Shown here: piece after piece, positions 9,747 to 39,207 of the stretch
How positions within the stretch are numbered: the first letter of the stretch is position 1
Layout of the letters: every line of letters begins with the position of its first letter
Assembly (NCBI GenBank): GCA_964440225.1
Contig: CAYTRM010000001.1
Span: 1 to 43,003 of the forward strand
Reading direction: 5' to 3'
Length of the DNA: 43,003 nucleotides
DNA from: an uncultured Thermoleophilia bacterium
Lineage (GTDB): Bacteria > Actinomycetota > Thermoleophilia > UBA2241
Translations under genes and position numbers: made by a program
Notes under the pieces: generated by a model
What the model saw: the letters and a program-made list of their open reading frames with translations, nothing else
The model's database searches: none
What the model was told of the DNA's origin: nothing

Positions 9747-11015
9747 GTGAGCATGGGGGGGTTCCGCAGCAAGTCCGTGGTGCTCGTCGTGGTGCCGGTG
9801 ATCCTGCTCTTCGCCGGGCTGCTTCTGGGGCTGGTGGGCACGGGCTGCGCCAGGCAGGCCGGCCCGCCGCAGGCCCCGCCGGTGCAGGCCACACCCGTGG
9901 CCACGCTCTCTCCGGCCGTCCCGTCGACGATCGACGACGTGTCGCCGGCCGGCCTCGACGCCTACATCAAGGCCAAGATGAAGGTCGCGCACGTGCCGGG
10001 CCTGGCCGCGTGCGTCGTCTCTGACGGCGAGATCGTCTGGGCCAAGGGCTACGGTTGGGCCAATGTCGAGAAGCGCCGTCCCGTCACGCCCGATACCGGC
10101 TTCATGCTCGCCTCGATCTCCAAGACCCTCGTCGCTACGGCGGTGATGCAGCAGGTCGAGGCCGGCACCCTGTCGCTCGACGCGGACGTCAACACCTACC
10201 TGCCGTTCCCGGTGCGCAATTCCAAGCATCCCGACGATTCGGTCACGCTCCGTCAGCTGCTCACCCACACCTCGAGCGTCCGCGACCACTCCCCGGTCTG
10301 GGACGGCCTCTACACGTACGGGGAAGACTCACCGGTCCCGCTCGACGACTTCCTCGAGGGTTATCTCACGTCCGGCGGGAGCTACTGGGACGAGAAGGAC
10401 TACTCCCGCTTCGCGCCCGGCGAGAACTACGAGTACTCGAACGTCGGCGCCGACCTGGCGGCCTACGTCGTCGAGTCCGCCACAGACATGCCCTTCGACC
10501 AGTACTGCGCCACGCAGGTCTTCGCGCCGTTGGGCATGAACGCCACGTCATGCAAGCTCGAGGGTCTCGACCGCAGCGCTCTTGCCATGCCGTACCGGTA
10601 CGCCTCCGGCTCCGGAAAGTACCGTGCCTACGGACACTACAGCTACCCCGACTACCCTTGCGGTCAGGCACGTTCGAGCGTCTCCGAGCTCGGGCGCTTC
10701 CTTGCTTCGTACACGAGTGACGGGACCTACCAGGGCGTGCAGCTTCTCAAGCCCGAGTCGGTGGCCGAGATCCTGCGCCCGCAGACCTCTCTGTACAAGG
10801 GGCAGGGTCTGGCCTGGTACCGCGAGAAGGTCGGCGGGCCGAAGGTGCTCGGGCACCAGGGCGGCGACCAGGGCGTCTGTACGTTCATGTTCTTCGACGA
10901 GAAGACCGGCGACGGCGCAATCGTGCTGACCAACAGCGACGTGTCGACGTGGAAGGAGTGGTACGCGGTCGAGGACGTGTTCGCGAGGCTGATCGCCGAG
11001 GCGCCACGACTCTGA
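9747..11015 (+). CDS. Serine hydrolase (beta-lactamase family) with N-terminal membrane/secretion signal
   Basis: GAGGAGGG RBS. Start at GTG 9747 or ATG 9753. Hydrophobic N-terminus VVLVVVPVILLFAGLLLGLVGTGC. SxxK motif ASISKT. Confidence 0.85.
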   Translation: MSMGGFRSKSVVLVVVPVILLFAGLLLGLVGTGCARQAGPPQAPPVQATPVATLSPAVPSTIDDVSPAGLDAYIKAKMKVAHVPGLAACVVSDGEIVWAKGYGWANVEKRRPVTPDTGFMLASISKTLVATAVMQQVEAGTLSLDADVNTYLPFPVRNSKHPDDSVTLRQLLTHTSSVRDHSPVWDGLYTYGEDSPVPLDDFLEGYLTSGGSYWDEKDYSRFAPGENYEYSNVGADLAAYVVESATDMPFDQYCATQVFAPLGMNATSCKLEGLDRSALAMPYRYASGSGKYRAYGHYSYPDYPCGQARSSVSELGRFLASYTSDGTYQGVQLLKPESVAEILRPQTSLYKGQGLAWYREKVGGPKVLGHQGGDQGVCTFMFFDEKTGDGAIVLTNSDVSTWKEWYAVEDVFARLIAEAPRL

Positions 11016-11075
11016 AGACTCCTCGTACGTGCGCGGTTTGAAGAGCGTGGTTCGCGAGGCTCTGATCAGGGAAGC

Positions 11076-28279: not shown

Positions 28280-28405
28280 CGTCAACGTCGGACGGAAGAT
28301 GAGACGGTACGTCCGACCCCGGTGGTAGGCTCCGCCCGTTTGAGCCCCACACTGTAGGATGGCCTCGTCCAGAGGCCCGGTTCCCAGGGGGGGAGGCGCA
28401 CCGAC

Positions 28406-29974
28406 ATGGCTCCAAGCACCAAGGAAGCGCAACGCGCCGAACTCCACAAGACGATCTGGCGCATCGCGAACGATCTTCGCGGGTCCGTGGACGGGTGGGA
28501 CTTCAAGACCTACGTGCTCGGCATCCTCTTCTACCGGTTCATCTCCGAGAACCTCACCGCCTACCTGAACGCACAAGAGCGTGAGGCGGGGCGCCCCGAT
28601 TTCGACTATGCCAGGCTCTCCGACGCCGATGCGGAGTTCGGCCGCGCCGAGACGGTGGCCGAGAAGGGCTTCTACATCCTGCCCAGCGAGCTGTTCGAGA
28701 GCGTCCGTGGGCGCGCGGGCTATGACGAGAACCTCAACGAGACGCTCGAGTGCGTGTTCCGCAACATCGAGGGCTCCGCCATCGGCGCCGACAGCGAGGA
28801 CGACCTCAAAGGCCTCTTCGACGACCTCGACGTGAACAGCGCCAAGCTCGGCAACACGGTCGCCAAGCGCAACGAGAAGCTGGTCAAGCTGCTCGATGCG
28901 ATCGGCGATCTCGGCCTGGGCAACTTCGAGGACCACACCATCGACGCGTTCGGCGACGCGTACGAGTACCTCATGCAGATGTACGCGTCGAGCGCGGGCA
29001 AGTCCGGCGGGGAGTTCTACACGCCGCAGGAGGTGAGCGAGCTGCTCGCGCGCATCACCGTGGTGGGCAGGACCGAGGTGAACAAGGTCTACGACCCCGC
29101 GTGCGGATCGGGCTCGCTGCTGCTCAAGTTCGCGAAGGTGCTGGGCAGAGAGAACGTCCGCCAGGGCTTCTTCGGCCAGGAGATCAACCTGACCACGTAC
29201 AACCTCGCGCGCATCAACATGTTCCTGCACGACGTGAACTACGAGCAGTTCGACCTCGCGCATGGGGATACGCTGACCGACCCGGCGCACTGGGACGACG
29301 AGCCGTTCGAGGCGATCGTCTCGAACCCGCCGTACTCGATCAACTGGGACGGCGACGCGAACCCGCTGCTCATCAACGATCCGCGGTTTGCACCGGCCGG
29401 CGTGCTCGCGCCCAAGTCGAGAGCCGATCTCGCCTTCACCATGCACATCCTGAGCTGGCTCGCGGTCGACGGCACCGCGGCGATCGTCGAGTTCCCCGGC
29501 GTGCTCTACCGTGGCGGCGCGGAGCGCAAGATCCGCAAGTACCTCGTCGACAACAACTACGTCGATACGGTCATCCAGCTCCCGCCGGACCTGTTCTTCG
29601 GCACCACCATCGCGACCTGCGTGATCGTGCTCAAGAAGTCGAAGACCGACAACGCGGTGCTCTTCATCGATGCGTCGGCGGAGTTCGTCCGGGGCGGCAA
29701 CAAGAACAAGCTGACCGAGGCGAACCGGCAGAAGATCCTCGATGCCTTCACCGCTCGTGAGGACGCCGAGTACTTCGCCCGCCTCGTCCCCAGCGCCGAG
29801 ATCGCCGGGAACGACTACAACATCGCCGTCTCGTCGTACGTCGAGCAGGAGGACACGACGGAGGCCGTCGATATCGTGGCGCTCAACGCCGAGATCGCCG
29901 GCATTGTCGCGCGACAGACGGAGCTGCGCACCCAGATCGACGCGATCGTCACGGACCTGGAGGGCAGGGCGTGA
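28406..29974 (+). CDS. hsdM: Type I restriction-modification system methyltransferase subunit HsdM (N6-adenine)
   Basis: HsdM N-terminal domain (LHKTIWRIANDLRGSVDGWDFKTYVLGILFYRFISENL), AdoMet motif VYDPACGSGSLLL, catalytic SNPPYS. Confidence 0.95.
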   Translation: MAPSTKEAQRAELHKTIWRIANDLRGSVDGWDFKTYVLGILFYRFISENLTAYLNAQEREAGRPDFDYARLSDADAEFGRAETVAEKGFYILPSELFESVRGRAGYDENLNETLECVFRNIEGSAIGADSEDDLKGLFDDLDVNSAKLGNTVAKRNEKLVKLLDAIGDLGLGNFEDHTIDAFGDAYEYLMQMYASSAGKSGGEFYTPQEVSELLARITVVGRTEVNKVYDPACGSGSLLLKFAKVLGRENVRQGFFGQEINLTTYNLARINMFLHDVNYEQFDLAHGDTLTDPAHWDDEPFEAIVSNPPYSINWDGDANPLLINDPRFAPAGVLAPKSRADLAFTMHILSWLAVDGTAAIVEFPGVLYRGGAERKIRKYLVDNNYVDTVIQLPPDLFFGTTIATCVIVLKKSKTDNAVLFIDASAEFVRGGNKNKLTEANRQKILDAFTAREDAEYFARLVPSAEIAGNDYNIAVSSYVEQEDTTEAVDIVALNAEIAGIVARQTELRTQIDAIVTDLEGRA

Positions 29975-30018
29975 GCCGCATCGACGCGATCATGGCGAAC
30001 TCGGAGCGTGGGTCGTGA
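29971..30018 (+). pseudogene. 15-codon stub derived from an hsdS 5' end (VSRIDAIMANSERGS*)
   Basis: Starts with the same GTGA overlap on the hsdM stop. GTGAGCCGCATCGACG matches the real hsdS start at 32250 (GTGAGCCGCATTGACG) at 15 of the first 16 nt. Its stop overlaps the next gene's GTG (GTGA). Confidence 0.5.
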
Positions 30019-30500
30019 ACGAGCAGGCGCCCGGAGAAATCATCCTGTATTCGCGCGAAGACGGAGCGCCTGCCATCGAGGTGCACCTTGATGCAGACAC
30101 GGTGTGGCTGACTCAACAGCAGCTTGCTGAGCTCTTCCAGACCTCACGAACAAACGTCGTCGAGCACATCCAGCACATCTATGAAGAGGGCGAGCTCAAG
30201 CAGGACGCAACCTGTCGGGATTTCCGACAGGTCGACGCCGCGGAATTCCGGGCACAGAGCCACGAGCCCACGTACATGAAGGACTGGCTCGCGCATCTCG
30301 ACCGTCTGATCGCCGCTATGGAAGCGCCGACACTCAACGGCCCCGGCTCCATAAGCCATCAGCAGGCGATGGAGAAGGCAGAGGGCGAGTACGAGAAGTA
30401 CCGGGCGTTGGCCGACTCGCCTGCTTCGGACGTCGAGCGCGCATATCTCGACGCGGTGAAGCGCGCTCAGCACCGGCTTGAAGAGGGGGAATCGTCGTGA
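30015..30500 (+). CDS. RhuM-family-like protein lacking the central region (N-terminal and C-terminal RhuM segments only)
   Basis: IILYSREDGAPAIEVHLDADTVWLTQQQLAELFQTSRTNVVEHIQHIYEEGEL is the RhuM N-terminus. MKDWLAHLDRLI...GSISHQQAMEKAEGEYEKY is the RhuM C-terminus. They are joined at about 30234-30270 with the long middle part missing. Confidence 0.6.
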   Translation: MNEQAPGEIILYSREDGAPAIEVHLDADTVWLTQQQLAELFQTSRTNVVEHIQHIYEEGELKQDATCRDFRQVDAAEFRAQSHEPTYMKDWLAHLDRLIAAMEAPTLNGPGSISHQQAMEKAEGEYEKYRALADSPASDVERAYLDAVKRAQHRLEEGESS

Positions 30501-31324
30501 GCGCGAGGCCGACAGCGCTGAGCGAGCCGCCGGAGGGCTACGCGGAATGGCTGGTGGGCCTGAAGGACCGCATCCACTCGGCCCAGCAGCGCGCCGCGCT
30601 CGCGGTCAACACCGAGCTGCTCCAGCTGTATTGGGAGATCGGCAACGACATCCTCCAGCGCCAGGCAGAGCGGGGTTGGGGCACCAAGGTCGTCGAGCGT
30701 CTCGCCCACGACCTGCGCAGCGCCTTCCCCGACATGCGAGGGTTCTCCCGAGCGAACCTGTGGTACATGCGCGCCTTCGCGGAGGCGTGGGCCGAGAGCG
30801 AAATCGTCCAACAGCCTGTTGGACGATTGCCGTGGGGGCACAACATCGTGCTCCTCACGAAGCTCAAGGTGTCCGAGGAGCGACTGGCCTACGCCCATGC
30901 GGCCGTCCGGCACGGATGGTCACGCAACGTCCTGGTGATGCAGATCGAGACCCGGCAGCTTGAGCGTCAGGGACGGGCGATCACCAGCTTCGCGCAGGCG
31001 CTTCCGGCGCCACAATCCGACCTCGCCCGTGAATCCCTGAAGGACCCGTACCGGTTCGACTTCCTGGGGATCGGCGATGAGGCCCTTGGTTTCTACCTGA
31101 CCGCCGTCGATGAGCGCATCAAGGACGAACGGGACGAGCCGACCATCGGCCTGCTGCTCTGCAAGAGCAAGAACAAGGTTGTCGCGGAGTACGCCCTTCG
31201 CGACAACAGCCGGCCTCTCGGCATCGCCGAATACCAACTCGTTGAGGCGTTGCCCGAGCCGCTTCAGGCGAGCCTGCCGACTATCGAGCAGATCGAGCGG
31301 GAGCTGGAAGGGGAGTCGTCGTGA
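30497..31324 (+). CDS. YhcG/DUF1016-family protein with the PD-(D/E)xK nuclease core deleted in frame
   Basis: YAEWLVGLKDRIHSAQQRAALAVNTELLQLYWEIGNDILQRQ...LKDPYRFDFLGIGDEA jumps directly to FYLTAVDERIKDERDEPTIGLLLCKSKNKVVAEYAL...IAEYQL. At 275 aa it is ~85 aa shorter than typical members. Junction near nt 31085. Confidence 0.7.
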   Translation: MSARPTALSEPPEGYAEWLVGLKDRIHSAQQRAALAVNTELLQLYWEIGNDILQRQAERGWGTKVVERLAHDLRSAFPDMRGFSRANLWYMRAFAEAWAESEIVQQPVGRLPWGHNIVLLTKLKVSEERLAYAHAAVRHGWSRNVLVMQIETRQLERQGRAITSFAQALPAPQSDLARESLKDPYRFDFLGIGDEALGFYLTAVDERIKDERDEPTIGLLLCKSKNKVVAEYALRDNSRPLGIAEYQLVEALPEPLQASLPTIEQIERELEGESS

Positions 31325-32253
31325 GCGAGCAGGACATCGTCATCTACACCGCTCCAGGCGTGGAGCTCTCCCTGCCGCTCGACCGAGAGCACGAGACCGT
31401 ATGGGCATCCCAACCGCAAATCGCCGAGCTCTTTGCGATCGACAGGACCGGCGCGACCCGGCACATCAACAACGTCTTCAGGGGAGCGGAGGTGGATCGG
31501 GAAAGCAATGTGCAAAAAGTGCACATTGCTGGCTCAGACCGGCCGGTGACGCTGTACAGCCTCGATGTCATCCTCGCCGTCGGGTACCGGGCAAACTCCG
31601 CACGAGCGATGGAGTTCCGTCGCTGGGCGAGTGGCGTTCTGAAACAGTACCTCGTCAAAGGTGCTGCGCTCAACGAGCGTCGTCTGCGCGAAATCGGACA
31701 GGTAGTCCAAGTTCTCAGCCGATCCACCGATGAGCTGGTCGCTGGTGTTGCCGACGTCCTCGCCGGATATCTCCCGGGCCTAAGGCTGCTACGAGACTAC
31801 GATGACGGGCGAATCGAGGCGGCACCCGGTGCAACGCCGGGCTGGGAACTCACCCTCGATGAGGCGCGGGCGGTGATCGGCCATGTGGCTGAGGAGTTCC
31901 CGACGGATGGGCTCATCGGCAAGGAGCGCGGCGACGCCCTGGACGGCGTCGTCGGGGCGATCTACCAGAGCTTTGGTGGGCAGGATCTGTACCCAACCGC
32001 CGAGGAGAAGGCGGCCAACCTGCTGTACCTCGTAGTGAAAGACCACCCGCTGGCCGATGGAAACAAGCGTAGTGCCGCCGCGCTCTTCGTAACCTTCTTG
32101 GCCCGCAACGGCATCCTGGAAGGCGCTGATGGCCGCCTGTGTATCTCGAGCAACGCGCTCGCGGCACTTACGTTGATGGTCGCGATGAGCGCACCTGAGG
32201 AAAAGGGACTCATGGTCGCGCTTCTTGTGCGAATGATCTCGGGAGAAGCGTGA
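31321..32253 (+). CDS. RhuM N-terminal domain fused to a Fic/Doc-family domain
   Basis: N-terminus ETVWASQPQIAELFAIDRTGATRHINNVF...YSLDVILAVGYRANSARAMEFRRWASGVLKQYLVKG (RhuM-like). C-terminus has the Doc-type motif HPLADGNKRSAA (HxFx[DN][AG]NKR with F to L). Confidence 0.8.
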   Translation: MSEQDIVIYTAPGVELSLPLDREHETVWASQPQIAELFAIDRTGATRHINNVFRGAEVDRESNVQKVHIAGSDRPVTLYSLDVILAVGYRANSARAMEFRRWASGVLKQYLVKGAALNERRLREIGQVVQVLSRSTDELVAGVADVLAGYLPGLRLLRDYDDGRIEAAPGATPGWELTLDEARAVIGHVAEEFPTDGLIGKERGDALDGVVGAIYQSFGGQDLYPTAEEKAANLLYLVVKDHPLADGNKRSAAALFVTFLARNGILEGADGRLCISSNALAALTLMVAMSAPEEKGLMVALLVRMISGEA

Positions 32254-33476
32254 GCCGCATTGACGAGCTGATCGCCAGGCTGTGCCCAGATGGGGCGCCT
32301 CGCCGGACGCTGGGCGAGATTGGCCAGTTCCAGCGGGGTCGACGCTTCACGAAGGCGGACGTCGTCGAGGACGGTATCCCAAGCATTCACTATGGAGAGA
32401 TCTATACGCACTACGGTGTTGCCGCCGCCGAAACGGTGTCCCATGTTCGTGCCGACTTGGCCACGCAGCTTCGCTTCGCGAGCCCAGGCGATGTGGTGAT
32501 TGCCGGAGTTGGCGAAACCGTGGAAGACGTGGGTAAGGCGGTCGCCTGGCTTGGCGCAGCGGATGCCGCAATCCATGACGACTGCTTCCGATACCATCAT
32601 TCGATGGATCCCAAGTACGTTTCGTACTACCTACAGACCGAAGCCTTCCATTCGCAGAAGCGTAGGCATGTCGCCCGAGCGAAGGTGAAGCGGCTCTCCG
32701 CCGAAGCTCTCGCCAGCATCGTCATTCCGGTGCCGCCCCTCGAAGTGCAGCGGGAGATCGTGCGGGTGCTCGACACGTTCGCGGCGCTCGAAGCGGAGCT
32801 GGAAGCGGAGCTGGCGGCCCGGCGGCGCCAGTACGCTCATTACCGAGACTCACTCCTGACCTTCCCCGAGGGGGGGGTCCGGCGGGTTCCGATGGGTGAG
32901 GTCGCGAGCATTGTCAGAGGGGCCTCGCCTCGCCCGATTCAGGCCTTCCTCGCTCACGACGAGCGTGGCGTCCCTTGGATTAAGATTGGTGATATCGCGG
33001 CGAGCGGCAAGTACATCACAGGCACCGCGGAGCGGGTCACGGCTGACGGTGCCTCCAAGTCCCGGCGAGTCCATCCGGGTGACTTCGTGCTGTCGAACTC
33101 CATGAGCTTCGGACGCCCGTACATCGTGGGAATCGAGGGCTGCATCCATGACGGCTGGCTTGCCATCAGCGACTTCAACGCATCGTTCGTTCCTGACTTC
33201 CTGTACCACCTCCTGCGTTCGGCTCCAGTTCAGGCTGAGTTCGCGCGGCGTGCCGGTGGTGGGACCGTACAGAACCTCAACGCCGATATCGTGAAAGCGG
33301 TTGTCCTTCCCATTCCGCACCTTGAGGAGCAGGCCCGCATCGTCGCCATCCTCGACGCGTTCGACGCGCTCGTGAACGACCTGTCGAGCGGCCTTCCTGC
33401 CGAGCTTGCCGCGCGCCGCAAGCAGTACGAGTACTACCGCGACCGCTTGCTGACCTTCAAGGAGGCGGCCGCATGA
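32250..33476 (+). CDS. hsdS: Type I R-M specificity subunit HsdS (two target-recognition domains)
   Basis: Two TRD halves, each followed by a conserved helix (LEAELEAELAARRRQYAHYRDSLLTF and LPAELAARRKQYEYYRDRLLTF). GTGA overlap with the upstream gene. Confidence 0.9.
   Translation: MSRIDELIARLCPDGAPRRTLGEIGQFQRGRRFTKADVVEDGIPSIHYGEIYTHYGVAAAETVSHVRADLATQLRFASPGDVVIAGVGETVEDVGKAVAWLGAADAAIHDDCFRYHHSMDPKYVSYYLQTEAFHSQKRRHVARAKVKRLSAEALASIVIPVPPLEVQREIVRVLDTFAALEAELEAELAARRRQYAHYRDSLLTFPEGGVRRVPMGEVASIVRGASPRPIQAFLAHDERGVPWIKIGDIAASGKYITGTAERVTADGASKSRRVHPGDFVLSNSMSFGRPYIVGIEGCIHDGWLAISDFNASFVPDFLYHLLRSAPVQAEFARRAGGGTVQNLNADIVKAVVLPIPHLEEQARIVAILDAFDALVNDLSSGLPAELAARRKQYEYYRDRLLTFKEAAA
32790..32813 (+). 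repeat. Exact 12-bp tandem repeat GAAGCGGAGCTG x2 in the central conserved region of hsdS
   Basis: Read directly. Encodes (EAEL)x2. Confidence 0.9.
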
Positions 33477-34369
33477 CGGGCAAGCACATCGAGCTGTTCC
33501 TCGTAGCGGGCGTCCCGGGCGGTATCACCACTGCGGAGATCGCCGGCTGGGCCGGTCACGTTCTCGCCGGGCCACGCTCTGACCTCGGCGATGTGCTGAG
33601 GCGCCCGGAGGCGAAGCGCAACGGCGCGTACTTCCTGCTCGGCGACGACGAGGAGGCGGTGGGTGGCGTTCGCTGCTACATCGGGCGCACGGAGAACTTC
33701 ATCGCCCGGTTCCGCGACCACTCGGCGAAGAAGGAGTTCTGGGATCGCGTGGTCCTCATCACGTCGAAGGACGACTCGTTCACCGAGGGCCACTGGGGCT
33801 ACCTCGAGTGGCGGCTCGTGGAGCTCGCGAAGCAGGCCGCGCGTGTCACGCTGGCCAACGGCAACGATCCGCAAGGCCGCAGGCTCTCGGAGGCGCAGGC
33901 CTCGGACATGGAGGCGTTCCTGGAGCAACTGCAGATCGTCTTGCCGGTACTCGGCGTGAACGCGATCCGGGTTCGACCGCAGGCGGCGCCGGCGCAAGCA
34001 TCGAAGGATGCCTCTCCGGTCTGCAGCCTGACGAACGCGAAGCTCAAGGTGGAGGCGACCGCGCAGCAGTTGGGCGACGAGTTCACCATGCTGAGAGGTT
34101 CGCGGATCGTCGGCATGTGGTCGGCGATCGGCAAGGCGGAAAGTACACAGCGCTCGTATGCCGCGTATCGGGCTCAACACGAGCGACTGGTGGCGGACGG
34201 CTCGATCGCGGTGGAGGGCGGCGTCGGTGTGCTCACGCGGGACGTGCCGTTCGGCTCGCCGTCCTCGGCGGGGGCCATCGCCCTGGGTCGCTCGTGCAAC
34301 GGTCGCATCGAGTGGAAGACGCCTGACGGGGGCTCGTACGGCGACTGGGAGAACCGTGGGGTGGAGTGA
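33473..34369 (+). CDS. GIY-YIG nuclease-family protein with DUF4357-like C-terminal domain
   Basis: ATGA overlap with the hsdS stop. GAYFLLG...CYIGRTENFIARFRDH (GIY...YIG...R). C-terminal TMLRGSRIV...RSYAAYRAQHERLVADGSI...LTRDVPFGSPSSAGAIALGRSCNG fits DUF4357. Confidence 0.7.
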   Translation: MTGKHIELFLVAGVPGGITTAEIAGWAGHVLAGPRSDLGDVLRRPEAKRNGAYFLLGDDEEAVGGVRCYIGRTENFIARFRDHSAKKEFWDRVVLITSKDDSFTEGHWGYLEWRLVELAKQAARVTLANGNDPQGRRLSEAQASDMEAFLEQLQIVLPVLGVNAIRVRPQAAPAQASKDASPVCSLTNAKLKVEATAQQLGDEFTMLRGSRIVGMWSAIGKAESTQRSYAAYRAQHERLVADGSIAVEGGVGVLTRDVPFGSPSSAGAIALGRSCNGRIEWKTPDGGSYGDWENRGVE

Positions 34370-34491
34370 GGCGGCGACTGCTCCGAATGACATCGTGAGC
34401 CAATAACGATATCAACTGGCTCATTCATGATGCATTTCGTGCCTGGCGCGAGTGCCTCTGGGACGAGTCGTGCTTATCTGTCGTCGCTCGC

Positions 34492-34519
34492 GCCATTTTC
34501 GGTGCGCACCGAAAATGGC
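34492..34519. other. Perfect 28-nt palindrome GCCATTTTCGGTGCGCACCGAAAATGGC (operon-end hairpin or protein-binding site), with a third GAAAATGG half-site at 34528-34535
   Basis: Read directly. Located in the 283-nt AT-richer spacer between the GIY-YIG gene and abiEi. No U-tract. Confidence 0.6.
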
Positions 34520-34585
34520 CCCAGAGTGAAAATGGGCGCAGGACGAATCTGTCGTTGTTGAGTTGCTCAGGGCCGGCGATGACAA

Positions 34586-34646
34586 ACTCGGGAGTGCGAT
34601 AAAAACCTCGGGTAATGTTGACAACTTCCGAGTAATCTATCACACT
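34586..34646 (+). promoter_or_regulatory. Candidate abiE promoter/operator: TTGACA (34618-34623), 17 nt, CACACT (34641-34646); repeated ACTCGGGAGT-type motifs
   Basis: ACTCGGGAGT (34586-34595), CCTCGGGTA (34606-34614) and inverted ACTTCCGAGT (34624-34633) bracket the -35. The -10 ends 6 nt before ATG 34653, compatible with a leaderless transcript. Confidence 0.35.
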
Positions 34647-34652
34647 GCGCCC

Positions 34653-35270
34653 ATGGGACGGGAACCGTCAGGGAGTGCCGTGCGTGCCGCAGAGGAGATC
34701 TTCCGTGCCGCGGGAGGTACTCTCCGCACCCGCGAAGCTGCCGCACGCGGCATTCACTATTCGACCCTCTATGGGATGCGGGATGACGGCCTTCTCGAGC
34801 GACTTTCACGGGGAGTCTATCGCCTTGCAGAGCTCCCAGCGCCGGGCAAGTACGATGTTGTGACCGTGGCCGAGCGTGTTCCTGACGCGGTGCTCTGCCT
34901 CATCAGCGCACTCGACTTCCACGAGATCGGCACGCAGATACCCGCATGGGTGAACATCGCGATAGGACCCAAAGCCTGGCATCCGCGGTTCGACTACCCG
35001 CCCGTCCGCGTGTATCGGATGTCGGGCGAGGCCCTCACGGCGGGCGTGGAAGAGCACACGATCGATGGCACGCCGGTCATGGTGTTCAGTCCGGCGAAGA
35101 CAGTCGCCGACTGCTTCAAGTTCCGGAGCAAGGTGGGGCTGGACGTCGCGCTCGAAGCGCTCCGGGAGACGCTTCGGAGCCATAGGGCGACGCGTGGCGA
35201 GATCATGCACTTTGCCGCCATCGACCGAGTCACGAAGATCGTTCGCCCGTATCTGGAGGCGACGGAATGA
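34653..35270 (+). CDS. abiEi: Type IV toxin-antitoxin system AbiEi-family antitoxin/transcriptional regulator
   Basis: LRTREAAARGIHYSTLYGMRDDGLLERLSRGVYRL (winged-helix N-domain) and CLISALDFHEIGTQIP...VFSPAKTVADCFKFR, typical of AbiEi. Confidence 0.85.
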   Translation: MGREPSGSAVRAAEEIFRAAGGTLRTREAAARGIHYSTLYGMRDDGLLERLSRGVYRLAELPAPGKYDVVTVAERVPDAVLCLISALDFHEIGTQIPAWVNIAIGPKAWHPRFDYPPVRVYRMSGEALTAGVEEHTIDGTPVMVFSPAKTVADCFKFRSKVGLDVALEALRETLRSHRATRGEIMHFAAIDRVTKIVRPYLEATE

Positions 35271-36178
35271 GTCAGCGCGTAGTGAGCAACATACCTGCCT
35301 CAGTCCGTGCACGCCTCCTCAACGAAGCCAGGGCAAGCGGCGACTCGTTCGACCAAGTGCTCCAGTATTTCGCCATCGAACGCTTCCTCTATCGGCTGTC
35401 CAAGACCGAGTGGAGTGGGCGCTTCATAGTTAAGGGCGCGATCATGCTGAGGGCCTGGGACTCATCGCTCGGTCGGCCGACACGAGACATCGACTTTCTG
35501 GGTCGGGTCGACAACTCCCCCGAGGCCCTTGTGGAAGTCGTACGCGAGTGTCTCGCCGTCGCGTATCTCGACGATGGAATAGTGTTCGACCGTGAGATCG
35601 AGGCGACCGCGATCAACGCCGAGCGGGACTACCCTGGAGCAAGGGTGGTGCTTCGCGGCAACCTTGACGGAGCCACGTTCAAGCTGCAGCTCGACGTCGC
35701 GATCGATGACGCGGTCGTACCGGATCCCGCATGGATCGACTACCCGACGCTTCTGGATCTCGACGCGCCACGCATCCTGGCCTACCAGCCCGTGACGGCG
35801 CTCGCGGAGAAGTACGAGACGATCGTACGCAGGGACGTTGAGAACAGCCGTCTGCGAGATTACTACGACATCTGGCTCGTCTCGAGGTCCCGATCGGTTC
35901 TCGGTTCTGAGCTGGCGGCTGCCATCGCCGCGACGTTCGGGCATCGCGGGACGCCTCTGATCGCCGCGATCCCGCCGGGCCTCTCCGAGACCTTCTACGA
36001 GAGCCCAGAAGCACGGAGTTGGTGGCGGTCGTTCCTGCTGACCAAACGAGTCGATGCGCCCGACGACCTTGCGGTCGTGTGCGCGATGATCACCGCGTTC
36101 ATCCTGCCGCCCGCGATCGCAGTCGCTTCGGGAACGCCGTTTGCTCCGAAATGGAATCCGTCGACAGGATGGTCATGA
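35267..36178 (+). CDS. abiEii: AbiEii/AbiGii-family nucleotidyltransferase toxin
   Basis: ATGA overlap with abiEi. FIVKGAIMLRAW...RPTRDIDFLG and LAEKYETIV...NSRLRDYYDIW match the family pattern. Confidence 0.85.
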   Translation: MSQRVVSNIPASVRARLLNEARASGDSFDQVLQYFAIERFLYRLSKTEWSGRFIVKGAIMLRAWDSSLGRPTRDIDFLGRVDNSPEALVEVVRECLAVAYLDDGIVFDREIEATAINAERDYPGARVVLRGNLDGATFKLQLDVAIDDAVVPDPAWIDYPTLLDLDAPRILAYQPVTALAEKYETIVRRDVENSRLRDYYDIWLVSRSRSVLGSELAAAIAATFGHRGTPLIAAIPPGLSETFYESPEARSWWRSFLLTKRVDAPDDLAVVCAMITAFILPPAIAVASGTPFAPKWNPSTGWS

Positions 36179-39100
36179 CCGACGCCAGAACCGCACACTA
36201 CGACCCGATCGTCGTGAGCGCGGAGAGCACGGTCGTGGCCGAGTACTTCTCGGAGTCCGCGGACGAGGCGGCATATCAGTCTGAGGCCGCTCTGGAGCGG
36301 GGGTTCATCAGCGTCCTGCAGTCTCAGGCCTGCGAGTACCTGCCGCTCACGAGCGAGGCCGAGCTCATCGCGAACCTCCGCGTGCAGCTCGAGGCACTCA
36401 ACGGGATCACGTTCAGCGATGGCGAATGGGAGCGGTTCTTCCGGGAGAAGATCGCCGGCGCCAACGAAGGCGCCGTCGAGAAGACGGTGCGCATCCAGGA
36501 GGACCACGTCCAGATCCTGAAGCGCGACGACGGCTCGACCAAGAACGTCGCGCTCATCGACAAGACGAACATCCACAACAACCGTCTTCAGGTCATCAAC
36601 CAGTATGAGGTCGAGCAGCGTGAAGGCGGCACGGCGCGGTCGAATCGCTACGACGTGACGGTGCTGGTGAACGGCCTGCCGATGGTGCACGTCGAGCTCA
36701 AGCGTCGCGGTGTGGACATCCGCGAAGCGTTCAACCAGATCGACCGCTACCAGCGCGACAGCTTCTGGGCAGGCTCCGGCCTGTTCGACTACGTGCAGCT
36801 CTTCGTGGTCAGTAACGGCACGCTCACCAAGTACTACTCCAACACGACCCGCCGACGGCACGTGAGCGAGAGGGCGGGCTCGAAGCGGGTGCGCAAGACC
36901 TCGAGCTCGTTCGAGTTCACCTCCTGGTGGGCGGACGCGACGAACCGACCCATCCAGGATCTCACCGCGTTCGCCAAGACGTTCTTCGCCAGGCACACGC
37001 TGCTCAACATCCTGTGCAAGTACTGCGTGCTCACCGCGGACAGGGCGCTTCTGGTGATGCGACCGTACCAGATCGTCGCCACCGAGCGGATCCTCCAGCG
37101 GATCGAGATCTCCACCAACTACAAGCAGCTCGGCAAAGTCGGCGCGGGCGGCTACGTCTGGCACACGACCGGCTCAGGCAAGACGCTCACGAGCTTCAAG
37201 ACCGCGCAGCTCGCGACCAGGCTGCCCGGCGTCGACAAGGTGCTCTTCGTCGTCGACCGCAAGGACCTCGACTACCAGACCATGCGCGAGTACGACCGGT
37301 TCGAGAAGGGCGCCGCGAACTCCAACACGTCGACGGCGGTGCTGAAGAAGCAGCTCGAGGATCCCGCGGCGAGCATCATCATCACGACGGTCCAGAAGCT
37401 CTCGACCTTCGTCGCGGCGAACAAGGGCCACCGCATCTACGACGGTCACATCGTCATCATCTTCGACGAGTGCCACCGGTCGCAGTTCGGTGAGATGCAC
37501 ACCGCGATCACCAGGGCGTTCAAGCGCTACCACCTCTTCGGCTTCACGGGCACGCCGATCTTCTCGGTCAACGCGGGAAGTGGAGGCAACCCCCAGCTCC
37601 GGACCACAGAGCAGGCCTTCGGCGACAAGCTGCACACCTACACCATCGTCGATGCGATCACCGACAAGAACGTGCTGCCGTTCCGAATCGACTACGTCAA
37701 CACGATCAAGTTGCCGGAGGGCGTCGCCGACGAGCAGGTCTCGGCGATCGACACGGAGAGGGCGCTCCTCGCTCCCGAGCGCATCCGTCAGATCGTCGGC
37801 TACACCCTGGAGCATTTCGACCAGAAGACCCGACGGGCAGAGCGGTACTCGCTGTCCGGCAAGCGCGTTCACGGTTTCAACGCGCTCTTCGCCACGGCCT
37901 CGATCGAGGCCGCGAAGCGCTACTACCTTGAGTTCAAGGAGCAGCAGAAGGATCTGCCGCCCGATCGCAGGCTCAAGGTCGGGATCATCTTCTCGTATGC
38001 ACCGAACGAGACGGTGGACGACTACCTGGACGAGGAGGGCTTCGAGACCGGCGCTCTCGACCAATCCTCACGCGACTTCCTGGGCGACGCGATCCGGGAC
38101 TACAACGCGCTGTTCGGCACGAGCTTCGACACCTCGGCCGACAGGTTCCAGAACTACTACAAGGACCTCTCGCTGCGCCTGAAGCGCCGCGAGATCGACC
38201 TGGTCGTCGTCGTGAACATGTTCCTCACGGGGTTCGACTCGACGACCCTGAACACGCTGTTCGCCGACAAGAACCTGCGCGCGCACGGGCTCGTTCAGGC
38301 CTACTCGCGCACGAACCGCATCCTCAACTCCGTGAAGACCTACGGCAACATCGTCTCGTTCCGCGATCTGGAGCAGGAGACCAACGACGCGATCGCGATC
38401 TTCGGCAACAAGGATGCTCGCGGGATCGTGCTGCTCAAGCCGTACGGCGACTACTACTCCGCGTACGCCGCGAAGGTCGCGTTGCTGCTCTTTCAGTACC
38501 CACCGGGGACGCGGATCGTGGGGGAGTCGGAGCAGAAGGAGTTCATCGCGCTCTTCGGGGCCATCCTGCGCCTGCAGAACATCCTCACCTCGTTCGACGA
38601 CTTCGCCGGCAACGAGATCCTCACGGAGCGCCAGGCGCAGGACTATCGCAGCGTGTACCTCGACCTCTACGCCGAACTGCGCGGCAAGGCGGATGCCGAC
38701 AAGGCGCCGATCAACGACGACATCGTCTTCGAGATCGAGCTCATCAAGCAGGTCGAGATCAACGTCGACTACATCCTGATGCTCGTCCAGAAGTGGCGCG
38801 ACGCCCACGGTGACGGCTCCGACGTGGAGATCCGCGCGTCGATCAGCCGCGCCGTCGACGCCAGCCCCAGCCTGCGCAACAAGAAGGACCTGATCGAAGC
38901 CTTCGTCGATTCCGTCTCGGTCGACGGAAAGATTGACGAGGAGTGGCGGGCGTTCGTGCGTGCGAGGCGTGAGGCCGAGCTTGACGCGATCATCGCAGCG
39001 GAGGGGCTCCGTCCGGACGCGACTCGTGCGTTCATCGACACAGCCTTCCGCGATGGCGCCGTGCAGACGACGGGTACGGCAATCACCAGGGTGCTGCCGC

Positions 39101-39207
39101 CGGTGTCGCGATTCTCGCCCGACGGGGAGCACGGAGAGAAGAAGCAGCGCGTGCTGGCGAAGCTCGGTGAGTTCTTCGAGCGGTTCTTCGGGCTCGGCAC
39201 GAGCTGA
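36169..39207 (+). CDS. hsdR: Type I restriction endonuclease subunit HsdR (type IC-like length)
   Basis: Nuclease region YDVTVLVNGLPMVHVELKRRG, helicase motif I WHTTGSGKTLTSF, motif II IIFDECHRSQ. Start at ATG 36169 (alternatives 36151 or 36175) overlaps the abiEii stop at 36176-36178. Confidence 0.92.
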   Translation: MVMTDARTAHYDPIVVSAESTVVAEYFSESADEAAYQSEAALERGFISVLQSQACEYLPLTSEAELIANLRVQLEALNGITFSDGEWERFFREKIAGANEGAVEKTVRIQEDHVQILKRDDGSTKNVALIDKTNIHNNRLQVINQYEVEQREGGTARSNRYDVTVLVNGLPMVHVELKRRGVDIREAFNQIDRYQRDSFWAGSGLFDYVQLFVVSNGTLTKYYSNTTRRRHVSERAGSKRVRKTSSSFEFTSWWADATNRPIQDLTAFAKTFFARHTLLNILCKYCVLTADRALLVMRPYQIVATERILQRIEISTNYKQLGKVGAGGYVWHTTGSGKTLTSFKTAQLATRLPGVDKVLFVVDRKDLDYQTMREYDRFEKGAANSNTSTAVLKKQLEDPAASIIITTVQKLSTFVAANKGHRIYDGHIVIIFDECHRSQFGEMHTAITRAFKRYHLFGFTGTPIFSVNAGSGGNPQLRTTEQAFGDKLHTYTIVDAITDKNVLPFRIDYVNTIKLPEGVADEQVSAIDTERALLAPERIRQIVGYTLEHFDQKTRRAERYSLSGKRVHGFNALFATASIEAAKRYYLEFKEQQKDLPPDRRLKVGIIFSYAPNETVDDYLDEEGFETGALDQSSRDFLGDAIRDYNALFGTSFDTSADRFQNYYKDLSLRLKRREIDLVVVVNMFLTGFDSTTLNTLFADKNLRAHGLVQAYSRTNRILNSVKTYGNIVSFRDLEQETNDAIAIFGNKDARGIVLLKPYGDYYSAYAAKVALLLFQYPPGTRIVGESEQKEFIALFGAILRLQNILTSFDDFAGNEILTERQAQDYRSVYLDLYAELRGKADADKAPINDDIVFEIELIKQVEINVDYILMLVQKWRDAHGDGSDVEIRASISRAVDASPSLRNKKDLIEAFVDSVSVDGKIDEEWRAFVRARREAELDAIIAAEGLRPDATRAFIDTAFRDGAVQTTGTAITRVLPPVSRFSPDGEHGEKKQRVLAKLGEFFERFFGLGTS

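Follow-up and report, generated by a model that had tools for sequence, protein, structure and literature searches.

The DNA analysed here, a contig of 43,003 nucleotides (nt) from an uncultured Thermoleophilia bacterium (hereafter the window), carries a type I restriction-modification (R-M) operon in which three accessory genes stand between the methyltransferase gene hsdM and the specificity gene hsdS. Between hsdM and the first of them lies a 15-codon open reading frame (ORF), the stub, which overlaps both. A preliminary description of this stretch, whose quoted sequences and coordinates are all correct on re-reading, saw a single three-gene cassette set between two copies of a duplicated hsdM/hsdS overlap. 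The bases of the stub and the gene order of related operons point instead to an array built stepwise by recombination among hsd operons, with the stub as the scar of one such event.

Together with the restriction gene hsdR, hsdM and hsdS make up a complete type I R-M system, for which methylation and restriction activity are predicted. HsdM matches NCBIfam TIGR00497 at 3.6e-220 (732 bits against a cut-off of 242.75), and hsdS, with its two target-recognition domains, aligns over its full length to the hsdS of at least 60 related loci. Gene order and overlaps place genes 1, 2, 3 and 5 on the same strand inside the operon. Eight stop/start overlaps of 4 nt, with GGAG-type motifs upstream, link the reading frames: GTGA at 29971, 30015, 30497, 31321 and 32250, and ATGA at 33473, 35267 and 36175. 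The chain is unbroken from hsdM to gene 5 and picks up again at AbiEi/AbiEii and AbiEii/hsdR. The island as a whole spans 28338-39207 and has metabolic genes on both flanks, where no tRNA and no recombinase were found. The domain scan behind these assignments covered nine locus proteins and ten flanking proteins (18.9-43 kb of the window); an Rfam scan returned only a chance microRNA match.

Table 1. Coordinates of the hsd locus and of its junction features in the window.
Feature	Position	Strand	Description and basis
hsdM	28406-29974	+	Type I methyltransferase subunit, 522 amino acids (aa); Pfam N6_Mtase (1.7e-111) and HsdM_N
hsdM conserved 3' tail	29933-29974	+	QIDAIVTDLEGRA, then stop; 44.5 bits with the hsdM-tail matrix
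Stub ORF	29971-30018	+	Encodes VSRIDAIMANSERGS, then stop; GTG overlaps the hsdM stop, TGA overlaps the gene 1 start
hsdS-head fragment of stub	29971-29986	+	GTGAGCCGCATCGACG; columns 1-16 of the hsdS-head matrix
Second hsdM 3'-tail relic	29980-30018	+	IDAIMANSERGS, then stop; heptamer ATCGACG (29980-29986) common to the hsdS-head fragment
Gene 1	30015-30500	+	RhuM family, PADLOC PDC-S05, 161 aa; Pfam, PADLOC, alignment to full-length RhuM
Gene 1 tail and junction	30483-30503	+	GAGGGGGAATCGTCGTGAGCG; first copy of the only junction repeat above chance
Gene 2	30497-31324	+	YhcG/DUF1016, PADLOC PDC-S02, 275 aa; Pfam DUF1016_N and partial YhcG_C
Gene 2 tail and junction	31307-31327	+	GAAGGGGAGTCGTCGTGAGCG; second copy; an identical tail abuts hsdS directly in locus L081
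Gene 3	31321-32253	+	RhuM-type N-terminal domain and Doc-like Fic domain, intact, PADLOC PDC-S23; Pfam RhuM positions 13-70, Fic 1.6e-9
hsdS	32250-33476	+	Specificity subunit, 408 aa; Pfam Methylase_S in two stretches; protein start VSRIDELIA
Gene 5	33473-34369	+	DUF4357 protein, PADLOC PDC-S14 (2.2e-108); Pfam, PADLOC; between hsdS and hsdR
AbiEi	34653-35270	+	Pfam and PADLOC
AbiEii	35267-36178	+	Pfam and PADLOC; the AbiE pair is placed between gene 5 and hsdR
hsdR	36175-39207	+	Restriction subunit, 1010 aa; Pfam HSDR_N, SWI2_SNF2/ResIII, T1R_D3-like, EcoR124_C; ATG overlaps the AbiEii stop

A scan with one genome per species gathered 80 related hsdM-anchored loci (these and further related loci are numbered with an L below) from many phyla, whose HsdM shares 78-91% aa identity with that of the window. 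Most of them have the arrangement hsdM-hsdS-hsdR, which supplies the empty-site configuration that the preliminary description proposed to look for: hsdM ends in IDAIVADLEGxx and a stop, an [AG]TGA overlap follows, and hsdS begins MSRIDELIxxLCPDGV (GTGAGCCG[GC]ATCGACGAGCTGATC). In 27 loci the hsdM-hsdS interval is occupied, in 19 of these by a single gene that overlaps both the hsdM stop and the hsdS start. The single inserted genes are of RhuM, YhcG or RhuM-N/Doc type, a protein of about 305 aa known by length only, and others; where RhuM comes first, the hsdM tail normally runs into ATGA and the RhuM start. The junction was thus rightly described as an insertion site, and it behaves as a variable slot. 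GTGAGC, which recurs at its borders in the window, is no locus-specific repeat: it combines the [AG]TGA overlap found throughout the family with a start that encodes Met-Ser.

Two weight matrices, one made from 38 canonical hsdS starts of the same operon family and the other from 74 hsdM tails of related loci, resolve the stub into two parts. Its first 16 nt score 24.0 bits as an hsdS head, against 24.4 for the start of the real hsdS, and rank second among 85,976 positions of the window. The likeness ends there: columns 17-40 give -12.1 bits, where the canonical head of the resident hsdS, GTGAGCCGCATTGACGAGCTGATC, reaches 48.7 bits in all. The remainder is the end of an hsdM. Read against the hsdM-tail matrix, the relic scores 20.7 bits, second of 85,942 positions, with the next best position at 7.3; its elements (..ATCGACGCGATCGTGGCGGACCTGGAGGG..GGGTCGTGA) lead into the RhuM start, with a GGAG preserved some 10 nt ahead of gene 1. 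The two parts meet at the heptamer that they have in common, in which ATC GAC is read in frame as Ile-Asp in both parent sequences. Base by base, the stub thus reads as a fusion in which 16 bases from the start of an hsdS are followed by the final 32 bases of another hsdM. Taking it for a duplicated hsdS 5' end, as had been proposed, is right for 16 nt and fails for the remaining two thirds, and the left join would reflect recombination between two hsd operons, not a simple duplication of the hsdM/hsdS overlap around a cassette.

The stub is present in four independent assemblies, those of the window, L081, L181 (the same locus as L081) and L084, with a 1-nt difference from the window: codon 7 is still GTG in the relatives and ATG in the window, and the relic scores 24.5 bits in L081 and L084. 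None of the 80 other hsdM-anchored loci has it, and a scan of about 95 related loci for further head/tail scars found none of the same type. A metagenome scan with the chimeric joint TGAGCCGNATCGACGCNATC returned at least 119 stretches, nearly all of them chance SRIDAI-coding matches in unrelated genes; the one real match among the matches listed was L181.

Could the stub be a selected leader peptide, an upstream ORF that relays or tunes translation from hsdM? Its frame is intact, with overlaps at both ends in all four assemblies, and the GGAG before gene 1 has been kept. However, no other locus of the family has it, not even where RhuM comes directly after hsdM. Two parent sequences account for every base of the stub, an open frame would come automatically from an in-register crossover, and the key residues of the hsdM tail (D, L and G) are degraded. 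A leader is extremely improbable.

The main rival reading needs no second operon: replication slippage would have duplicated 44 bp in place, from the hsdM tail into the start of the following gene, and the tandem copies would later have diverged. The repeat search does find the relic to be a 39-nt direct repeat of the resident tail at 29936-29974, adjoining it with a spacing of 44 and 74% identity (79% in L081). Slippage implies that the first copy once ended GTGAGCGAG and not GTGAGCCGC, and GCGAG, from the RhuM start, must then have become exactly GCCGC, as in the hsdS head; among 37 related loci in which a gene other than hsdS comes first behind hsdM, not one has GCCGC after the TGA. In addition, the two copies differ at 21-26% of positions (8-10 of 39) while the stub differs between the window and L081 at 1 of 48, so that the duplication would have to be far older than the split. 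In-place duplication is decidedly unlikely.

Some related observations near the stub stand apart from this argument. Over its last ~270 nt (29700-29970), hsdM diverges from L081 and L084 two to three times as strongly as elsewhere, and 29934-29969 holds 8 mismatches where the adjoining stub has 1 in 48; the divergent 3' end resembles a conversion tract with its limit at the junction. In L083 (147-330) a 34-codon ORF lies between the hsdM stop and the gene 1 start, includes a YhcG-like fragment, AIVQEVVGQW, and ends in the same relic, ...GCGTGGGTCGTGA. This locus was not used as evidence: its contig has 712 nt, with a different sequence upstream of gene 1 and an inverted segment, looks rearranged and may be misassembled. 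Another kind of hsdS-head duplication occurs in Mariprofundus erugo (L032, 11560-11990), where hsdM is succeeded by 36 nt of an hsdS start and then, some 350 nt further on, by a complete hsdS, and a palindromic element, CCTGCCTGCCGGCAGGCAGG, appears in the hsdM tail and again directly after the stub.

The contents of the slot in close relatives show how its genes were combined. L081 (GCA_037131205.1) and L181 share 93% nt identity with the window over hsdM, stub and gene 1, with the same stub and the same deletion in RhuM, and continue with a full-length YhcG (346 aa) whose tail overlaps hsdS directly; gene 3 is missing. L084 (93.5% nt identity) agrees with them in the stub and in the deletion in RhuM, a gene that here has lost a further 36 nt in frame; its contig ends inside YhcG yet holds the core region that is missing from gene 2 of the window. 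In L204-L206 a gene 3 with 99% aa identity stands behind the same YhcG tail, and the YhcG of L205 is intact. L082 has a RhuM with its core, 94.5% identical in nt to the 3' part of gene 1, whose tail abuts an hsdS that resembles that of the window. A Doc-type gene with 80% aa identity occurs in L209-L211, in the order hsdM-Doc-hsdS, and in L207, in the order hsdM-Doc-RhuM(frameshifted)-hsdS-gene 5-AbiE-hsdR. Because the three genes occur in different subsets and orders, the array must have been assembled or pruned gene by gene, and L081/L181 (no gene 3), L205 (YhcG with gene 3) and L082 (RhuM abutting hsdS) contradict the three-gene cassette of the preliminary description.

Such a cassette would have entered the first codons of hsdS in one step, with the hsdM/hsdS overlap as its target duplication. 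It accounts for the two hsdS heads that flank the three genes (29969-29996 and 32248-32275, 82% identical over 28 nt) and for the GTGA overlap at every junction. However, relatives with the same stub lack gene 3 and other loci have gene 3 with no evidence of the stub; the hsdS homology stops at nt 16, the rest of the stub being hsdM tail; and neither the domain scan of 18.9-43 kb nor the repeat search found a transposase, an integrase or terminal repeats. Insertion in one piece is very unlikely.

Comparison of the window with L081 places the ends of exchanged segments. Identity is lost exactly after the GTGAGC behind the YhcG tail and regained at 33307, in the conserved 3' part of hsdS, which makes gene 3 and most of hsdS one exchanged block. 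Within YhcG, mismatches rise from 2-5 to about 24 per 100 nt over a stretch that opens with a mismatch at 30504, only 4 nt beyond the stop of gene 1, and closes near 30805; L084 agrees with the window throughout it. Breakpoints do fall on gene junctions, and to that extent the recombination at conserved junctions that had been proposed holds good. They are expected there when operons that differ in their neighbouring genes undergo homologous exchange, which ends where the homology ends. To stack a new gene beside an old one, at least one illegitimate join is still needed.

Genes 1 and 2 had been described as RhuM-like and YhcG-like genes; both turn out to be in-frame deletion derivatives. Gene 1 has lost about 184 aa, with the joint at 30231/30232 (FRQV/DAAEF), by comparison with L010, L043, L044 and L053. 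It covers only positions 188-246 of the 252 in the RhuM profile (PF13310) and matches PDC-S05 (3.6e-41) in two separate stretches only. The deletion is common to L081, L084 and L181; L082 keeps the core. Gene 2 has lost 213 nt (71 aa), a deletion with its joint at a CTTG microhomology (31085-31088) that removes the PD-(D/E)xK core. The missing residues include ...IDLLFYH...VVIELK, present in L036, L055 and L081; gene 2 retains YhcG_C positions 91-157 and lacks 1-90, including the catalytic core, and its match to PDC-S02 (3.1e-112) falls in two stretches. This second deletion is found in the window only, the 213 nt being kept in L081, L084 and L205. Both deletions preserve the frame and leave both overlaps intact. 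What would be annotated as a 'RhuM family protein' of 161 aa and a 'DUF1016 protein' of 275 aa are probably remnants without activity.

Shortened RhuM genes are not confined to this lineage. Among database proteins P0004-P0076 and at L068 (2131-2760), L045 (1967-2260) and L212 (5001-5474), RhuM shows many independent in-frame internal deletions, at least 14 of them distinct in their breakpoints; the protein-similarity search is biased toward in-frame forms. Several of the deleted genes occupy the hsdM-hsdS slot with both 4-nt overlaps kept, and in L207 RhuM is frameshifted instead. The pattern suggests that the RhuM core may have been purged repeatedly while translation through to hsdS was kept. 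As a separate feature, the coding sequence of gene 2 contains a perfect 13-nt palindrome with a 1-nt spacer (30802-30828; AATCGTCCAACAG C CTGTTGGACGATT).

Among the genes of the hsdM-hsdS slot, gene 3 alone is likely to be active. It matches PDC-S23 over its full length (1.2e-116), has more than 6,000 homologs of about 311 aa, and gives weak matches to TIGR01550 and to the Doc structure 9vzc. The Doc-type motif is HxFx(D/N)(A/G)NKR, and the gene 3 translation holds HPLADGNKR at this place. A classical Phd/Doc module was considered and rejected, there being no adjacent small partner ORF: no Phd-type antitoxin gene lies beside gene 3, which the YhcG relic and hsdS both overlap, leaving no room for one.

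The junctions at the ends of genes 1 and 2 may hold a further trace. Their tails match at 13 of the 15 nt before the stops, and at 19 of 21 with the stop and the next codon included. Tails of unlike gene families in related loci, paired 1,835 times as a null under the same coding and ribosome-binding-site constraints, reach 13/15 once (P ~5e-4, or ~0.008 after 15 within-window comparisons). All other tail pairs in the window are ordinary, at 4-9/15. The reiterated junctions of the preliminary description are upheld for genes 1 and 2; the hsdM tail, which it had added to them, matches at 7/15 and 6/15, the mode of the null distribution, and GTGAGC is explained by the coupling constraint. Its LEGESS junction shared with hsdM also dissolves, since the ..LEG.. 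resemblance is mostly a GGAGG-type ribosome-binding site read in frame (Glu-Gly) and is native to YhcG and RhuM homologs too. The IEQIERELEG of gene 2 was tried as a derivative of an hsdM tail and dropped: it scores 6.4 bits with the hsdM-tail matrix, under the best chance match of 7.3, and is native to YhcG homologs.

Might all of this likeness be convergence, imposed by ribosome-binding site and overlap in a genome of 68% G+C, with no trace of recombination? In-frame GGAGG gives Glu-Gly, and hsdM, RhuM and YhcG tails elsewhere also end in ..EG..; the low scores of the hsdM tail against those of genes 1 and 2, and of the gene 2 tail against the matrix, are what convergence would leave. It is at odds with the match between genes 1 and 2, which a single cross-family pair equals under the same constraints, with the RhuM tail of L082, which matches the gene 2 tail over 17 nt, and with the free variation of the last three to four codons among homologs. 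Convergence throughout is unlikely. The gene 1/gene 2 match fits an exchange or copying of last codons at the junction, without being proof of it; the tails closest to that of gene 1 are hsdM tails (L039, 13/15).

Together, these observations suggest, with a probability of about 0.7, that the array was built stepwise by recombination among related hsd operons and that the stub is the scar of an in-register crossover between an hsdS head and an hsdM tail. The history would run as follows. The operon family, spread across many phyla, offers an accessory-gene slot at each of two junctions, hsdM-hsdS and hsdS-hsdR. Genes in these slots have no apparent promoter of their own and are chained by 4-nt stop/start overlaps, with a ribosome-binding site in the last codons of the gene upstream, an arrangement that probably couples their translation to that of the methylase. 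In one empty-type operon the hsdS head (GTGAGCCGC-ATCGACG) would have crossed over, at the microhomology of the shared in-frame Ile-Asp heptamer, with the hsdM tail of a second operon that had RhuM directly after hsdM. Being in register, the crossover would have left the chimera with a frame that runs on to the old hsdM stop, still in overlap with the RhuM start, and with the old ribosome-binding site. The remaining events, in whatever order, would be the in-frame loss of the RhuM core, the joining of YhcG and the Doc-type gene exactly at gene boundaries and, in the window only, a deletion between CTTG repeats that took the nuclease core out of YhcG in frame. The stub and both relics may now be passive links over which ribosomes travel on to gene 3 and hsdS.

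Several points weigh against this account. The bases of the stub that are diagnostic of hsdS are five only, GCCGC; GTGA and ATCGACG fit other readings. The relic, at 74-79% identity to the resident tail, is compatible with an old 44-bp tandem duplication, and neither a donor operon with a matching hsdM tail nor the reciprocal product of the crossover was found among the loci searched. Between the window and L081, dN/dS is 0.38 for gene 1 against 0.10 for hsdM, a value that comes from 8 nonsynonymous and 6 synonymous changes only and suits a neutral relic as well as a constrained mini-protein. A scan for promoter and terminator consensus returned zero sites, the consensus being uninformative at this G+C content, and translational coupling and a single transcript of the accessory genes are presumed from the sequence. 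Most of the relatives are metagenome-assembled genomes or short metagenome contigs. The evidence does not set the direction of events (gain or loss of gene 3) or the order of stacking.

The stepwise account can be taken further, to a slot that works as an integrase-free cassette array. New genes would be stacked by crossovers at a short junction made up of ribosome-binding site, last codons and [AG]TGA overlap, with the scar and the 17-nt repeat that flanks YhcG as footprints, and older cassettes, among them RhuM with its repeatedly purged core, would be inactivated preferentially by in-frame deletions, since these let ribosomes pass on to hsdS. This generalization is possible but doubtful.

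Variable accessory genes in type I loci have precedents. In Campylobacter jejuni, the rlo genes are variable, unrelated ORFs between the hsd genes of otherwise conserved type I loci. The slot described here differs from these in gene families and host lineage, and we know of no head/tail scar described for rlo loci. Like integron cassette arrays, it stacks genes with no apparent promoter of their own behind one expressed gene, with varying order and content: L207 has Doc and then RhuM, the window RhuM, YhcG and Doc. An integron was nonetheless rejected. No IntI tyrosine recombinase is encoded among the nine locus and ten flanking proteins scanned, and there are no attC sites: the 4-nt overlaps leave no intergenic space, no conserved inverted repeat lies at the gene ends, and Rfam gave no match. 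Unlike integron joins, those seen here look like homologous or microhomology recombination between operons. Insertion of a transposon or insertion sequence (IS) was rejected as well, given that there is no transposase among the proteins scanned and no inverted repeat, and that the duplicated part consists of 16 nt of hsdS and a foreign hsdM tail.

In EcoKI, too, hsdM runs at its 3' end into the start of the gene behind it, and translational coupling of hsdM and hsdS has been shown experimentally (Roberts et al. 2012, PMC3510504). Unlike in EcoKI, the overlap chain of the window crosses up to five extra reading frames before hsdS, including the scar ORF and two relics, and coupling along it is presumptive. 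Candidate defence families defined by their embedding in type I R-M, BREX and DISARM operons are catalogued as PADLOC PDC families under the name of 'guilt by embedding' (Payne et al., bioRxiv 10.1101/2024.01.29.577857), and genes 1, 2, 3 and 5 belong to four of them (PDC-S05, PDC-S02, PDC-S23 and PDC-S14), with AbiE embedded too. In the sections of that study considered here, these four figure as candidates only with respect to anti-phage activity, which leaves any defence function of the present genes putative, and the same sections give no account of how junctions are built, of scars or of genes decayed in frame. In the window, deletion derivatives make up two of the slot's three genes. The PrrC anticodon nuclease of the EcoprrI hsd locus, as cited there, is likewise an accessory defence gene nested in, and functionally tied to, a type I operon. 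The RhuM, YhcG and Doc proteins are unrelated to PrrC, and any restraint of them by the R-M enzyme is hypothetical.

That genes are embedded in type I R-M operons is already known, and these particular families are catalogued. The new elements are a scar resolved in sequence, a history in steps and relics left by in-frame deletion. The locus is a base-by-base record of accessory-gene gain and loss in a defence operon: it has one scar, breakpoints at three gene boundaries and two relics that keep the frame, and close relatives give each of these a relative date. It indicates that a type I R-M operon can swap its embedded genes one at a time by recombination with related operons, without mobile-element machinery. 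Coupling to hsdS may constrain the decay of embedded genes and favour in-frame deletions. For annotation it advises caution, as the 161-aa RhuM and 275-aa DUF1016 remnants should not be counted as defence genes.

Beyond the hsdM-hsdS interval, the hsdS-hsdR junction is a second variable slot, which in the window holds gene 5 and AbiEi/AbiEii (33473-36178). In most relatives the hsdR start is overlapped by the hsdS stop; L207 has the same gene 5-AbiE-hsdR order as the window, and its hsdS, downstream of the frameshifted RhuM, consists of two overlapping half-genes with one target-recognition domain each (9842-11060). A 67-nt stretch just 3' of gene 5 (34375-34441 in the window) is present twice in L181 (8042-10397, reverse-complemented). 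The two copies flank about 2.3 kb that take the place of the window's AbiE region, and may be boundary repeats of the hsdS-hsdR slot.

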